The position numbers and the translations under genes are program-made. Source: a virus. From it: 10,610 nt of DNA. The DNA lies in the UHGV virus genome UHGV-0136196; one strand, given 5' to 3'. Shown here in pieces: positions 186 through 5,280 of the stretch (position 1 is its first letter; the number at the start of each line of letters is the position of its first letter). The notes under the pieces are model-generated. The model was not told the origin of the DNA and searched no databases. It was given only the letters and a program-made list of their open reading frames with translations.

Positions 186-932
<747 letters not shown>

Positions 933-999: not shown

Positions 1000-1200
1000 A
1001 TGGAACAACGCATAACCCTGAAAGATTATGCAATACGCTTTGGGCAAACCAAGACGGCTAAAGATCTCGGCGTATATCAAAGCGCGATTAACAAGGCCAT
1101 TCATGCAGGCCGAAAGATTTTTTTAACTATAAACGCTGATGGAAGCGTTTATGCGGAAGAAATAAAGCCCTTCCCAAGTAACAAAAAAACAACTGCATAA
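1000..1200 (+). CDS. cro: Cro repressor
   Basis: The 66-aa translation ([66 protein letters not shown]) is essentially lambda Cro, with a strong RBS upstream. Confidence 0.96.
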
Positions 1201-1338: not shown

Positions 1339-1635
1339 ATGACACAAACAAGTTACAGCAAACTATCCCAGCGCGACGTTGATCGCGCTGAAACTGATTT
1401 ACTCATCAACCTGTCAACGCTTACCCAGCGCGGTCTGGCAAAGATGATTGGCTGTCATGAATCGAAGATAAGCAGAACGGACTGGCGGTTTATTGCTTCG
1501 GTCCTGTGTGCTTTCGGAATGGCATCAGACATCAGTCCGATTAGCAGGGCTTTTAAGTATGCGCTTGATGGAATCACCAATAAAAAACGCCCGGCGGCAA
1601 CCGAGCGTTCTGATCAAATACAAATGGAATTTTAA
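1339..1635 (+). CDS. cII: CII-like transcriptional activator (lysogeny establishment)
   Basis: 98 aa. The C-terminal 20 residues (ITNKKRPAATERSDQIQMEF) match the lambda CII C-terminus almost exactly. The N-terminal two thirds, including the HTH-like region, are divergent. Position after cro and nutR is as expected. Confidence 0.8.
   Translation: MTQTSYSKLSQRDVDRAETDLLINLSTLTQRGLAKMIGCHESKISRTDWRFIASVLCAFGMASDISPISRAFKYALDGITNKKRPAATERSDQIQMEF
1348..1361 (-). promoter_or_regulatory. Candidate CII-binding -35 element of a PRE-like promoter (TTGC-N6-TTGT on the minus strand)
   Basis: The minus strand reads TTGCTGTAACTTGT inside the first codons of cII, the same position and orientation as the lambda PRE TTGC-N6-TTGC motif. 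One mismatch to the consensus repeat. Confidence 0.4.
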
Positions 1636-1657: not shown

Positions 1658-1801
1658 ATGCGAAAAACGCAGGAAAATAAACGCGTTAATCACCGAAAAG
1701 ATGTGCTACGTGACCAGTTTTATCAGGGGGTTAATCCAGCAATAGCTGTGCCACTGAGAGAAATACTTAACAGGTACAAAACTTTGGAGAAGTCAAAATG
1801 A
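1658..1801 (+). CDS. Hypothetical small basic protein (47 aa)
   Basis: ATG at 1658 with a GAGG RBS 8 nt upstream. The stop overlaps the downstream initiator gene start (ATGA at 1798..1801). The longer 1493 start in the ORF track would overlap cII out of frame and is not preferred. Confidence 0.3.
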   Translation: MRKTQENKRVNHRKDVLRDQFYQGVNPAIAVPLREILNRYKTLEKSK

Positions 1802-2595
1802 GCATGAATCTTATGGCTAAGGCCATGAATATAAAGGTTGGCAACCCACTGAGAAAACTGGTTCTGATTAAACTTGCCGATAACGCCAATGATAATGGCG
1901 AATGCTGGCCTTCATATCAACATGTCGCTGACCAGTGTGAGGTGAGCAGATCGACAGTAAAAAGTCACATTAGGGCACTGGAAGAGATGGGGCTTTTGAA
2001 AAGGGAATTCAGAAGAAAAGGAGAGCTTAACCAGTCAAACGTTTTTTATCTGACGCTGGATAATGCACAACAAATCCAACCAGAATCAGGTGGGGCAGGA
2101 GATGCCCGGGGTGGGGCAGGAGCTGCCCGGGGTGGGGCAGGAGCTGCCCTAGGGGGTGGGGCAGGAGCTGCCCCCAGAACCTATCACTCTTTTGAACCAG
2201 TCAATGAACCTAAAAACATTATGTTCGAACATGTCCGAACGGAGTGGGAAAAAACTCCTGACCGTCACGAAGAAACCGACAAGGCATTCGAGGAAATATT
2301 CTGGTGTGCAGGCATGCGGAAAGCCGGGAAGAAAAACGCAGCTTCAGCATTCAGAACACAGTTCAGGGAATGGCGTAAAACTACCAGGGGTACGGCAAGC
2401 GAGTTTGCCACGATGCTGGCAGAAGACATCGCATGCAGGAATGGTAAGCAGTTCGGATTCGACAGGTTGTTACCATCGAGCTACCTGAACGGTCAACGCT
2501 GGAACGACGAGAAGCCAGAAACTATTCAACCACAATCCAAACCATCATCCGCAATCACCGTATCGAAAACTGGCTACGTGTTTTTCGACAGGTGA
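1798..2595 (+). CDS. Replication initiator protein (lambda O-like function; N-terminal helix-turn-helix DNA-binding domain, Gly/Ala-rich linker encoded by iterons)
   Basis: 265 aa with a GGAG RBS upstream. The N-terminal region has an HTH-like segment (SYQHVADQCEVSRSTVKSHIRALEEMGLLKRE). The gene contains a direct-repeat iteron array, as lambda O does, and sits at the O position between cII and the helicase gene. The sequence is not lambda O. Confidence 0.75.
   Translation: MSMNLMAKAMNIKVGNPLRKLVLIKLADNANDNGECWPSYQHVADQCEVSRSTVKSHIRALEEMGLLKREFRRKGELNQSNVFYLTLDNAQQIQPESGGAGDARGGAGAARGGAGAALGGGAGAAPRTYHSFEPVNEPKNIMFEHVRTEWEKTPDRHEETDKAFEEIFWCAGMRKAGKKNAASAFRTQFREWRKTTRGTASEFATMLAEDIACRNGKQFGFDRLLPSSYLNGQRWNDEKPETIQPQSKPSSAITVSKTGYVFFDR
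2089..2175. repeat. Four tandem ~21-bp iterons (GGTGGGGCAGGAGCTGCCCGG-like), putative replication origin embedded in the initiator gene
   Basis: Direct repeats start at 2089, 2110, 2131 and 2155. Each contains an internal inverted repeat (GGGCAG..CTGCCC). A moderately AT-rich stretch follows (2176..2230). This mirrors the lambda ori arrangement inside O. Confidence 0.7.
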
Positions 2596-2598
2596 ACC

Positions 2599-2706
2599 AT
2601 GAAATCCAGAATCAAATCGTTACTTATCGCTGGCTATAACCATGGCTGGCTTAGTTCTGCATTCGTTGAGTTCTGGTTTAACCGTCTCGATCTGAGGTCA
2701 GCGTAA
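2599..2706 (+). CDS. Hypothetical small ORF (35 aa) between the initiator and primase-helicase genes
   Basis: ATG at 2599 with an AGGTGA RBS 5 nt upstream. The stop overlaps the primase-helicase start (TAATG). No recognisable similarity; could be a coupling ORF or spurious. Confidence 0.25.
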   Translation: MKSRIKSLLIAGYNHGWLSSAFVEFWFNRLDLRSA

Positions 2707-4586
2707 TGACTCCAAGTGAACTGAGCGACCTGCTTTGGGCGCAGGTTGACAGGGTGGCTCCGCACCTGTTGCCAAACGGCAAGAAAGAGGGGCATGAGTG
2801 GGTTGCCGGTAATGTCAACGGTGACAAGGGAAACAGCCTTAAGGTCAACCTTAGCGGCAAGAAAAAATGGGCTGATTTCGCCGAGGGAGACGGCGGTGAC
2901 ATGCTTGATTTGTGGATGGCATGTCGTGGAATTAACCTGCATCAGGCTATGCAGGAAGCGAAAGCATTTCTCGGTATCAAGGATGACGATCACCATTTCG
3001 ATGCCAGACGTGAGAAGAAATTCTCCAGACCTGATCGCAAGAAAATCGCCCGCTACGTTACCAGAACAGAATCCCATCTTGAGTACCTGCAATCGCGTGG
3101 CATATCGCCAGAAATCGTAAAGCGCTACGAGGTTGTCAGCGGCAAGGTGTGGAATGGAGAGCGGGAACTGGATGCTCTGGTGATTCCGTACAAACGCGAT
3201 GGTGAGTTGTTGCAGGTCAAGCGAATCAGCACTGAGCGCCCGGACGGGAAGAAAGTCATTATGGCAGAAGGTGATTGCGAACCTTGTCTGTTCGGATGGC
3301 AGGCTCTGGACGCTGGCGTGAGGGCGGTTGTACTTTGCGAAGGCGAAATTGATTGTATGAGCTATGCGCAATACGGCATCTCGGCGTTATCCGTACCGTT
3401 TGGTGGAGGGAAAGGCGCTAAGCAACAGTGGATTGAGTTTGAGTATCACAACCTCGACAGGTTTGAGGAAATATTCATCTCGATGGACGTTGATGATGTT
3501 GGTCGTGAAGCCGCAAGGGAAATCGCAAGCCGACTCGGTGAACATCGTTGCCGTCTTGTTACTCTGCCGTACAAAGACATCAACGAATGCCTGATGAACG
3601 GTGTTACCGAGGATGCAATCTGGCAGTACATCGGCACGGCATCCTACTTTGATCCTGAAGAACTCTACAGCGCGCGAGAGTTTTACCAGGACACTATCAA
3701 CGCTTTCTACGGCAAGCAGCAGTATCTGTTTAATCCACCGTGGGAATCTCTGGCAGATAAATTCCAGTTCCGTGAGGCCGAGTTGACGCTGGTCAATGGT
3801 GTGAACGGTCACGGAAAAACGGAGGTTGTCGGGCATATGGCACTTGAGGCAATGCGTCAGGGTGTGAAGACGTGCATCGCGTCACTTGAGCTGAAGCCTG
3901 GTATTCTCCTTAAGCGCCTTACCCGTCAGGCAACGTGCTGCAAGATGCCGCCAGTGCTGGAAATTGACTCTGCATTTAAATTTTATGACGAAAGACTTTG
4001 GGTGTTTGGCCTGACCGGAACGGCGAAAGCCGACAGGCTGATCGAAATATTCGACTACGCTCGCCGCCGATACGGGATCCAGTTATTCATCATCGACAGC
4101 CTGATGAAATGTGGCATAGGCGACGATGACTATAACGGGCAGAAAGCGTTTGTTGACTCGATATGTGACTTCAAAAATAAAACAAACTCCCACGTCATTC
4201 TCGTTACTCACTCGCGAAAAGGAGACAGCGAAGAAAAACCAACCGGGAAAATGGACGTAAAAGGCTCTGGAGCGATAACAGACCTGACAGACAACCTTTT
4301 CATCATCTGGCGTAACAAGGCTCGCGAGAGAGCGTTACAGAGAGTTCAGAGTGGTGAAAAGATGTCAGAGAAGGACGAACAGCTACTGGCATCTCCGGCA
4401 TCTGTTTTGATGCTTGAAAAACAACGTAACGGCGAAGGTTGGGAAGGTGGTGTCCCGTTGTTCCTTGACGAGCAATCGCACCAGTTCCTGCAACTTGAAT
4501 CAGGATCGCCATATAGCTACATCGCCAATATGCCGAAATCGGAATATGACGAGGCGTGGCGACAGGAAAACGTGACGGAGTATTAA
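2706..4586 (+). CDS. Bifunctional DNA primase-helicase (TOPRIM-type primase domain fused to a DnaB/RecA-like P-loop helicase domain)
   Basis: 626 aa with a GAGG RBS upstream. TOPRIM-like motifs are present (conserved Glu in VVLCEGEIDCMS; DxD in ISMDVDDVGREAA). Walker A is GVNGHGKTEV and Walker B-like is LFIIDSLMK. It occupies the position of lambda P. Confidence 0.85.
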   Translation: MTPSELSDLLWAQVDRVAPHLLPNGKKEGHEWVAGNVNGDKGNSLKVNLSGKKKWADFAEGDGGDMLDLWMACRGINLHQAMQEAKAFLGIKDDDHHFDARREKKFSRPDRKKIARYVTRTESHLEYLQSRGISPEIVKRYEVVSGKVWNGERELDALVIPYKRDGELLQVKRISTERPDGKKVIMAEGDCEPCLFGWQALDAGVRAVVLCEGEIDCMSYAQYGISALSVPFGGGKGAKQQWIEFEYHNLDRFEEIFISMDVDDVGREAAREIASRLGEHRCRLVTLPYKDINECLMNGVTEDAIWQYIGTASYFDPEELYSAREFYQDTINAFYGKQQYLFNPPWESLADKFQFREAELTLVNGVNGHGKTEVVGHMALEAMRQGVKTCIASLELKPGILLKRLTRQATCCKMPPVLEIDSAFKFYDERLWVFGLTGTAKADRLIEIFDYARRRYGIQLFIIDSLMKCGIGDDDYNGQKAFVDSICDFKNKTNSHVILVTHSRKGDSEEKPTGKMDVKGSGAITDLTDNLFIIWRNKARERALQRVQSGEKMSEKDEQLLASPASVLMLEKQRNGEGWEGGVPLFLDEQSHQFLQLESGSPYSYIANMPKSEYDEAWRQENVTEY

Positions 4587-4691
4587 ATGACCATCTACAT
4601 CACTGAGCTAATAGCAGGGTTATCGTTACTAATGGTTCTTACTGTATATATTATTAAGTATATTCTTTATGCGAATAAAAAAACCAATTGA
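4587..4691 (+). CDS. Hypothetical small hydrophobic peptide (34 aa)
   Basis: The ATG overlaps the primase-helicase stop (TAAATG). The translation MTIYITELIAGLSLLMVLTVYIIKYILYANKKTN looks like a single transmembrane helix. Lies in AT-rich DNA, and its 3' end overlaps the HNH gene start. Confidence 0.2.
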   Translation: MTIYITELIAGLSLLMVLTVYIIKYILYANKKTN

Positions 4692-5280
4692 TCACGATGA
4701 GCTTCTGTCAACATTATCATATGACTCAGAAACAGGAATATTTAAATGGCTAAAAACAAATTCAGTAGTAAGAGTAAAAGGTAGTATTGCTGGAGGTGTT
4801 AGTGGTGGTTATATATGCATTAGCATAAATAATGTTTTGTATTATGCGCATAGGCTTGCTTGGTTCTATGTATACAAAAAATGGCCTCCTAAGTTTATTG
4901 ATCATGTAAATGGGAACAGACTTGACAATAGGATTTCAAATCTAAGACTGGCAACAGAGGAGCAGAATGCAAGAAACATTGTAGGTAATAGGTTAAACAC
5001 ATCCGGTGCGATTGGAGTGTCTTGGGATAAGACAACTGGCAGGTGGAAGTCTTATGTTGGTTATAAAAATAAGACAATATCGTTAGGGTATTTCGATAGC
5101 AAAGAAGATGCAGCATTCATAGCAGCACTAGCAAGAAAGAAACTATATGGAACTTATGCGAGTAAAGCACTTAATTGCGAGCATGAGCTTTTATCTCAAT
5201 TTAATAATGATGAGGATAAACTTGCGGAATATCTTAAGGAAAAATCTAAAAGGACTCGAAAGCGTGTTAAAAAAAGATAA
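4669..5280 (+). CDS. HNH family endonuclease with AP2-like DNA-binding domain (homing-endonuclease-like)
   Basis: 203 aa. HNH motif region (IDHVNGNRLDNRISNLRLATEEQN), an AP2-like segment (GVSWDKTTGRWKSYVGYKNKTISLGYFDSKEDAA), and a basic C-terminal tail. The gene is markedly AT-rich compared with its neighbours. Confidence 0.8.
   Translation: MRIKKPIDHDELLSTLSYDSETGIFKWLKTNSVVRVKGSIAGGVSGGYICISINNVLYYAHRLAWFYVYKKWPPKFIDHVNGNRLDNRISNLRLATEEQNARNIVGNRLNTSGAIGVSWDKTTGRWKSYVGYKNKTISLGYFDSKEDAAFIAALARKKLYGTYASKALNCEHELLSQFNNDEDKLAEYLKEKSKRTRKRVKKR

Follow-up and report, generated by a model that had tools for sequence, protein, structure and literature searches.

Can a short tandem repeat inside a phage gene serve as an origin of replication, as it does in phage lambda, when neither the repeat nor the encoded protein resembles its lambda counterpart? 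This question is raised by a 10,610-nucleotide stretch of the virus genome UHGV-0136196 (hereafter, the window), in which four direct repeats lie within the coding sequence of a putative replication initiator. An initial annotation had proposed that the lambda arrangement, ori inside O, is reproduced here with another protein and other repeats, and every comparative test that we ran supported this proposal. In our judgement, the repeats are likely to be the binding sites of the initiator and the core of the phage replication origin, and the design very probably follows the lambda plan with an unrelated DNA-binding domain and unrelated repeats. Comparative support was obtained from the anatomy of the locus, its positional equivalence to known origins, the conservation of the DNA independent of reading frame, the covariation of recognition helix and iteron, and the covariation of C-terminal domain and partner gene. 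Initiator binding, the unwinding site, helicase loading, and origin firing we only infer from these comparisons. The elements under study are the following (coordinates in the window, strand given for coding features; aa, amino acids):

1798..2595, plus strand: initiator gene, 265 aa, in which a linker encoded by the repeats connects an N-terminal winged-helix domain to a C-terminal domain as in ES18 gp59
1798..2088, plus strand: N-domain, aa 1–97, putative origin-binding domain (profile matches, link between helix class and iteron class)
about 1945–1989, plus strand: predicted recognition helix SRSTVKSHIRALEEM, about aa 50–64, from the N-domain prediction
2089..2174: four iterons with dyad cores at 2092–2108, 2113–2129, 2134–2150, and 2158–2174
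2174..2210: conserved 37-bp box CCAGAACCTATCACTCTTTTGAACCAGTCAATGAACC with GAACC at 2177, 2194, and 2206
2180..2230: mildly unstable duplex, about 39–43% GC (guanine plus cytosine), 40-mers from 2180–2200 in the 90th–95th instability percentile
2211..2212: mosaic joint between the module of N-domain, array, and box and the C-domain module, where homology breaks in relatives
2212..2592, plus strand: C-domain, aa 139–265, putative recruiter of the phage primase/helicase, 94% identical to ES18 gp59 aa 156–282
2223..2240: dyad and direct repeat GTTCGAACATGTCCGAAC (Tandem Repeats Finder period 10, two copies), with a minus-strand hairpin and T-run

Tandem Repeats Finder reported a single array at 2089–2173 (period 21, 3.9 copies, 93% matches, score 136), and a repeat search of the window placed the copies at 2089, 2110, 2131, and 2155, with spacings of 21, 21, and 24. 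The four direct repeats of about 21 bp in the initial annotation were thus confirmed. The 17-nt core GGGGCAGGAGCTGCCCC was found at 2092, 2113, 2134, and 2158 with 2, 1, 1, and 0 mismatches, respectively. Including one minus-strand match, which arises because the core is a dyad, the window contained five core matches, compared to 0.01 expected from 200 shuffles. The core has the layout GGGGCAG-GAG-CTGCCCC, and the iteron consensus is T-GGGGCAG-nnn-CTGCCC(C). Of the dyads that had been noted inside each repeat, that of copy 1 has an imperfect right arm (ATGCCC for CTGCCC). The array has a GC content of 77.6%, compared to a mean of 46.8% for the window. It lies in the open reading frame (ORF) 1798–2595, the translation of which contains the linker peptide GGAGDARGGAGAARGGAGAALGGGAGAAP exactly as the earlier reader had given it. 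No extra iteron copies, which might act as operators, were detected elsewhere in the window at ≤3 mismatches, and an Rfam search of the window gave no match. A G-quadruplex formed by the G-runs that separate the units is conceivable in principle; the other iteron classes of the family have no G-runs.

The initiator matched Pfam HTH_36 (PF13730) at aa 17–67 (E=5.6e-14; 52.1 bits at a cut-off of 25) and the PHROGs families 4617, 270, 8540, and 391, described as 'replication initiation (O-like)'. Phage_rep_O (PF04492) was not matched by the window initiator in Pfam, whereas ES18 gp59 matched it at E=1e-35, and a comparison of the N-domain profile with the lambda-type N-domain revealed no relationship (hhalign probability 1.4%). 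As judged from these profiles, the window initiator is outside the lambda O family and belongs to the HTH_36 'O-like' initiators. The N-domain profile, built from 16 homologues, matched winged helices of the GntR, MarR, and ArsR families in the PDB. Within the N-domain, aa 1–48 are nearly invariant, and aa 49–64, which comprise the predicted recognition helix, are variable. Single-sequence AlphaFold2 modeling of the 265-aa protein reached a mean predicted local distance difference test (pLDDT) score of 35, and the model was not used.

Related arrays were collected by scanning IMG/VR with an iteron 16-mer, which returned 119 loci, most of them arrays in complete ORFs with an N-domain 70–100% identical to that of the window. 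Array statistics were calculated on 68 non-redundant arrays and the unit profile on 196 units, from which the unit used as search bait was excluded. The modal copy number was four (40 of the 68 arrays), and spacings of 24 (101 cases), 21 (69), 22 (14), and 17 (10) were observed, as well as 23. If the repeats were only a slippage-prone, low-complexity Gly/Ala-rich coding linker without a role in cis, their DNA identity would reflect recent duplication. The encoded peptide does resemble a flexible linker, all units of the window are in frame, and prophages that are nearly identical differ in copy number (1 to 6). In 14 of the 68 arrays, however, the motif is read in two frames inside one intact ORF (spacings 17, 22, or 23), so that adjacent units with one and the same 16-nt motif are translated as GAGAA and GQELP. 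This argues that DNA, and not peptide, is what is conserved in the repeats. The use of more than one reading frame led us to reject a pure coding repeat. Furthermore, the units have invariant arms around central bases that vary, and with them the encoded amino acids; the class of the motif follows that of the recognition helix; and the phages ES18 and Sf101 have unrelated iterons at the same spot (see below). We consider the coding-linker explanation very improbable.

In the 196 units, G2, G3, C15, and C16 were invariant and C5, A6, and T12 were conserved to 99%, while the central 3–4 bases varied freely; flipped units such as GGGGCAG-CTC-CTGCCC exist. This pattern fits a protein-binding site in duplex DNA and speaks against an obligatory hairpin. 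Hairpins in single-stranded DNA (primosome assembly or priming) or in mRNA (translational pausing) were nevertheless considered, given that each unit is a 6–7-bp dyad, that 2085–2180 folds as single-stranded DNA to -26 kcal/mol (z=-2.5), and that symmetric variants exist (GGGTCAG..CTGACC and GGTGCAG..CTGCACC). A full dyad was present in just 81 of the 196 units, on which ground the hairpin reading was rejected. Of the two half-sites, the left one hardly varies and the right one is degenerate, the second commonest unit, GGGGCAGGAGATAACC, cannot form a hairpin, and covariation with a protein helix is not expected from a pure hairpin. A hairpin function in place of duplex sites is accordingly given hardly any probability.

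In three loci (L013, L085, and L140), foreign DNA (…CTAGGGGGTGCCCCTATTAAGTTGTCAAGCATGTTATGACCCC…) interrupts the array after repeat 2 and truncates the initiator ORF.

Two further samples were drawn without regard to the repeats, namely 12 phages from a 'spread' list of tblastn matches and 80 IMG/VR loci retrieved with the N-domain profile, the latter being the best 80 of about 600 homologues. In closer homologues, the array was found at the same place in every complete ORF. For the 80 loci, chosen on the N-domain alone, tabulation of recognition-helix class against half-site class resulted in a block-diagonal table with off-diagonal means close to zero. The matched classes were:

RS[TS]VK.H[IV][RK] with half-site GGGGCRG, mean 2.7 per array
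[KR][ST]AVR.H with half-site RTGCCR, mean 4.1 per array
KSAVK.HI with half-site RTGCCR, mean 3.6 per array
[KR]RSVM.H with half-site RGTGCA, mean 3.8 per array
DRSTVR.HI with half-site GTAGGC, mean 4.0 per array
KRT[AV][MI]R with half-site GTGAC/GTCAC, mean 6.3 per array

The helix class thus predicts the half-site, which is indirect support for specific binding by the initiator N-domain and agrees with the earlier suggestion of an origin with its own initiator specificity. Class changes are often symmetric in both arms (GGGGCAG/CTGCCCC versus GGTGCAG/CTGCACC), as a dimer bound to a dyad would produce. With its many pairs of recognition helix and matching iteron, the family is an extensive data set provided by nature.

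In two high-GC viral contigs (L032 and L104), the N-domain is about 31% identical to that of the window and carries a similar helix, SERTVRTALRSLE. Their repeats are of the GGGGCAGGAGCTGCC type, spaced by 33, 23, and 22 and read in two frames; it seems that the core of the iteron persists when most of the protein sequence has diverged.

Directly behind the array lies the 37-bp box, with the consensus CCAGAACC(A/T)(G/A)TCACTCTT(T/C)TGAACCAGTCAAnGAACC, in which GAACC recurs at 17- and 12-bp intervals. The box follows the array in phages of E. coli, Pectobacterium, Vibrio, Aggregatibacter, and Pseudomonas (loci L006–L216, L124–L128, and L132), with any iteron class or C-domain. Codons were compared pairwise among 15 diverse representatives at degenerate sites encoding the same amino acid. 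Identical codons were used at 95% of these sites in the box (960/1006) compared to 41% in the N-domain, where the highest value for any window of 13 codons was 48%. Amino acid identity is lower in the box (74%) than in the N-domain (77%). Being frozen at synonymous sites despite this lower amino acid identity, the box is constrained as DNA. It takes the position of the AT-rich unwinding tract of lambda, and its role in the origin is putative. Candidate roles are an opening site, a helicase entry site, a host-factor site, or a recombination boundary. A comparison by eye with the DnaA-box, IHF, and Fis consensus sequences gave no convincing match.

The last of these roles would mean that the conserved sequences, especially the box, are kept as a 'boundary' that promotes homologous recombination between mosaic modules and not for an origin function. 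The box does lie exactly at a recurrent mosaic joint, and conserved junction sequences have reportedly been proposed for lambdoid mosaics in the HK620/HK97 literature. Yet the joint is to the right of the box, and the box codons are the same in Vibrio, Aggregatibacter, Pseudomonas, and Enterobacteria phages that elsewhere differ at 59% of synonymous sites. As a boundary would also leave the iterons and their covariation with the helix unexplained, we regard this explanation as extremely unlikely.

According to the nearest-neighbor stability profile, the least stable 40-mer near the array starts at 2190 and ranks in the 95th percentile of the window. If the duplex opens here, it would most plausibly do so first in the unstable stretch 2180–2230, which overlaps both box and mosaic joint. 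One tentative possibility is that the box is a new sequence-specific element for origin opening or helicase entry that replaces the AT-rich tract and is bound by aa 1–48 of the HTH_36 protein, either as duplex or as one melted strand. Such a role would explain why the box travels with the N-domain across iteron class, host genus, and helicase system, why its synonymous sites are frozen (95% versus 41%), and why it is found where lambda has its unwinding tract. If this is true, the family, taken with the table of helices and iterons, would reveal how a winged-helix initiator encodes its recognition in nature, across hundreds of phages. A conserved box that is not AT-rich may show how such origins open.

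The position of the array was compared with that of known origins in related phages. ES18, epsilon34, Oslo, Sf101, and SEN22 are homologous to the window only from AAAAACAYTATGT onward. The homology of phage SI5 and of many IMG/VR loci ends at the same joint (2211), and the partial matches obtained in genomes of E. coli end at query position 262, equivalent to 2211 of the window. From AAAAACATTATG on, ES18 gp59 and epsilon34 gp50 share 94% identity over 127 aa with aa 139–265 of the window initiator, and both phages also have the 35-aa ORF and the primase/helicase of the window. Upstream of the joint, the whole module of N-domain, iterons, and spacer is exchanged: gp59 and gp50 have a Phage_rep_O N-domain and four lambda-type iterons, annotated as rep_origin and protein_bind. 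In both phages the iterons are followed by an AT-rich tract of 39 bp (28% GC), and the distance from array to joint is 37 bp in the window and 39 bp in ES18. Similarly, Sf101 and SEN22 (L217 and L218) contain a third N-domain with TGTCAC...GGTGACA iterons (repeats TGTCACnnnnnnGGTGACA) and an A-rich tract, joined at AAAAACAYTATGT to the same C-module. Since the cassettes of ES18/epsilon34 and of Sf101/SEN22 share one joint with the window, three unrelated cassettes, each consisting of N-domain, repeat array, and spacer, are interchangeable at this position. A reciprocal chimera was found in locus L049, in which a window-type N-domain with GGGGCAG iterons is joined to a C-domain that shares 56% identity with lambda O aa 159–268, and a lambda-P homologue comes next.

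These exchanges bear on a further explanation, according to which the repeats are sites of the helix-turn-helix (HTH) protein for regulation (autorepression, roadblock, copy control, or handcuffing), with the origin located elsewhere. Plasmid iterons also serve copy control and autoregulation, the flanks of the array are not strongly AT-rich, and less stable DNA is present elsewhere in the window. What makes a purely regulatory array unlikely is that, at one and the same joint, it stands in for lambda-type iterons annotated as ori. Moreover, array and box were found with the N-domain in at least five combinations of C-domain and helicase, and no further conserved cis element lies close by.

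Specifically, the N-domain and array were found fused to at least five types of C-domain, and the downstream partner gene changes with the C-domain:

primase/helicase: window, with the ES18-type C-domain
lambda-P-like: L049, L069, L103, L023, and L016
DnaC-like: L006 and L044

The C-domain thus appears to match the adjacent helicase or loader gene: a C-domain like that of lambda O is paired with lambda P, and C-domains of other types are paired with DnaC-like proteins. A homologue of the HTH_36 initiator was also detected on the 28-kb circular Arsenophonus nasoniae plasmid paNv_CH13 (L221), with its own array (GTGACAAAAAYGACA / GGTGACACAGTGTCACC) and a variant of the box. It adjoins parM/parR and a DnaC-like gene, which suggests that the HTH_36 cassette is used as a plasmid replicon.

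At the site of the window dyad 2223–2240, just right of the joint, a perfect inverted repeat of 7 bp, GTCCGAAAG(T/C)GTTCGGAC, is present in ES18, epsilon34, Sf101, and SEN22. The dyad may, with some uncertainty, contribute to the origin as an accessory element and accompany the C-domain of the primase/helicase type.

For an origin at the array, we propose the following sequence of events. The initiator would be expressed from the early rightward operon (cro, cII, small ORF, initiator), and its N-terminal winged-helix domain would use the recognition helix to bind each dyad-like iteron, probably as a dimer for which the left half-site dominates. Four sites about two helical turns apart would assemble a nucleoprotein complex resembling the O-some of lambda, which would stress the adjacent GAACC box and the mildly unstable stretch 2175–2230. 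The C-terminal domain would then recruit the phage primase/helicase (2706–4586) directly, without a loader of the lambda-P or DnaC type.

The region 1600–2800 of the window shares 97% nucleotide identity with the Stx2a (Shiga toxin 2a) phages Stx2a_F403, F451, phi24B, and Min27, in which the genes are annotated 'O' and 'P', and 97.4% with AP012529.1. The initiator gene itself shares 97% identity with 'O' of phi24B, Min27, and Stx2a_F403. Stx2a_F403 is named as the type phage of Eru5 (Table 1 in PMC8951638), and by this correspondence the replication region of the window, which has the HTH_36 gene of Stx2a_F403, phi24B, and Min27 with a primase gene behind it, is of Eru5 type. Differences were found in the number of repeats, which is three in F403 and phi24B and four in the window, and in the primase/helicase gene, which comprises 2907 nt in phi24B (L001) and 1881 nt, without an intein, in the window. 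The P gene of phi24B has been reported to contain an intein (PMC3430580). The Eru papers (including PMC8951638) and the phi24B genome paper name only the genes and contain no mention of the repeats or of an origin. In the literature on Eru5 phages and phi24B no ori is described, and a full-text look-up of the iteron and box strings gave only irrelevant papers. That each initiator binds its own iterons in its own coding region is a rule already formulated in the literature on lambda, P22, and L (PMC8022706). The probable origin of the window fits this known principle; the origin, the iterons, and the box themselves are new, being without description in the searchable literature. Phages of the phi24B/Eru5 type carry stx2a in E. 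coli O157:H7 outbreak strains, and toxin output depends on phage replication. A testable candidate origin (2089–2210) with its predicted initiator and helicase is a starting point, and a possible target, for the Stx field.

Several points count against an origin at the array. All unit spacings in the window are multiples of three, and the window taken alone is compatible with a slippage-prone coding repeat. A comparison of repeat number across related prophages, as the initial annotation had recommended, gave a mode of four in the 68 arrays, as in lambda; the near-identical prophages with 1 to 6 copies include true one-copy alleles. The minimum for unwinding in lambda is two iterons plus the AT-rich tract (PMC7466680). 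One iteron is unlikely to support an O-some, and the one-copy prophages may be defective, or the array may be non-essential. The AT-rich stretch that had been annotated after the repeats was confirmed in part. The GC content of 2174–2240 (38.8%) is below the window mean of 46.8%, but the difference is modest, the tract of ES18 has 28%, and the array adjoins the conserved GAACC box and no strongly AT-rich element. The least stable DNA of the window is located elsewhere, at about 4640, 90, and 1300. A weak profile match was also obtained between the N-domain and that of DnaD (2vn2, E=0.008), and aa 16–92 of the initiator matched phrog_186 (E=7.5e-9). The DnaD N-domain mediates oligomerization and not sequence-specific binding. 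A DnaD C-domain was not matched by the initiator. Finally, the Eru papers state that nothing is known about the replication of these phages (PMC8951638).

Among the known systems, lambda ori/O is similar in that the initiator gene houses the array between the parts for an N-terminal domain that binds DNA, as predicted for the window, and a C-terminal domain that recruits, with four dyad-like copies about two helical turns apart (spacing 20, 24, 23 in lambda and 21, 21, 24 in the window), and in that the initiator gene follows cII in the pR operon. Unlike in lambda, the N-domain is HTH_36 and not Phage_rep_O, the iterons (78% GC) are unrelated in sequence, a conserved GAACC box stands in place of the AT-rich tract, and the partner is a primase/helicase, whereas the O-some of lambda recruits P and the host DnaB. 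Gene 18 of P22 and of phage L likewise contains its own repeats, those of phage L differing from the window as six 11-bp units TGTCCAACGGA. In O of 933W/P27, the encoded peptide lengthens with copy number (PMC7466680), as in the family of the window. Iteron plasmids (RepE/F, pi/R6K, TrfA/RK2) also combine a winged-helix initiator, the binding of which is a prediction in our case, with tandem iterons of about 20 bp beside an unwinding element. Their iterons are intergenic, in contrast to the intragenic ones of the window, and no Rep_3-type domain was detected in the window initiator in Pfam, NCBIfam, or PDB profile searches. Plasmid Rep proteins can bind one strand of the DNA unwinding element (DUE) sequence-specifically (PMC4081077), a possible analogy for the conserved GAACC box.

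The genes surrounding the initiator are:

186–899, minus strand: cI
1000–1200, plus strand: cro
1339–1635, plus strand: cII
1658–1801, plus strand: 47-aa ORF that overlaps the initiator start (ATGA) and matches phrog_1913, labelled 'tail protein'
2599..2706, plus strand: 35-aa ORF, homologue of ES18 gp60 (phrog_21848, E=2.4e-28; annotated as gp60/gp51 in ES18/epsilon34)
2706..4586, plus strand: bifunctional primase/helicase, 626 aa (Pfam Toprim_2, E=3e-12; AAA_25; DnaB_C)
4669–5280: HNH endonuclease of homing type (HNH_3 and AP2), after the primase/helicase gene

The primase/helicase matched phrog_239, 'DNA primase/helicase', at E=2.7e-171. The label 'tail protein' of phrog_1913 is almost certainly wrong for an ORF between cII and the initiator. 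A terminator-like hairpin with a T-run was found at 1584–1611 on the minus strand, antisense to the 3' end of cII, at the position of the oop RNA terminator in lambda. Furthermore, a long-range stem of 20 nt (90% complementary) pairs 1713–1732, inside the upstream 47-aa ORF, with 1843–1862 and encloses the ribosome binding site and start codon of the initiator; the RNA of 1700–1875 folds to -49.3 kcal/mol (z=-3.25). The stem is absent from most diverged loci and kept in close relatives, and in L159 and L214 the arms are changed yet complementary (0/200 shuffles). It may serve the translational coupling or control of the initiator.

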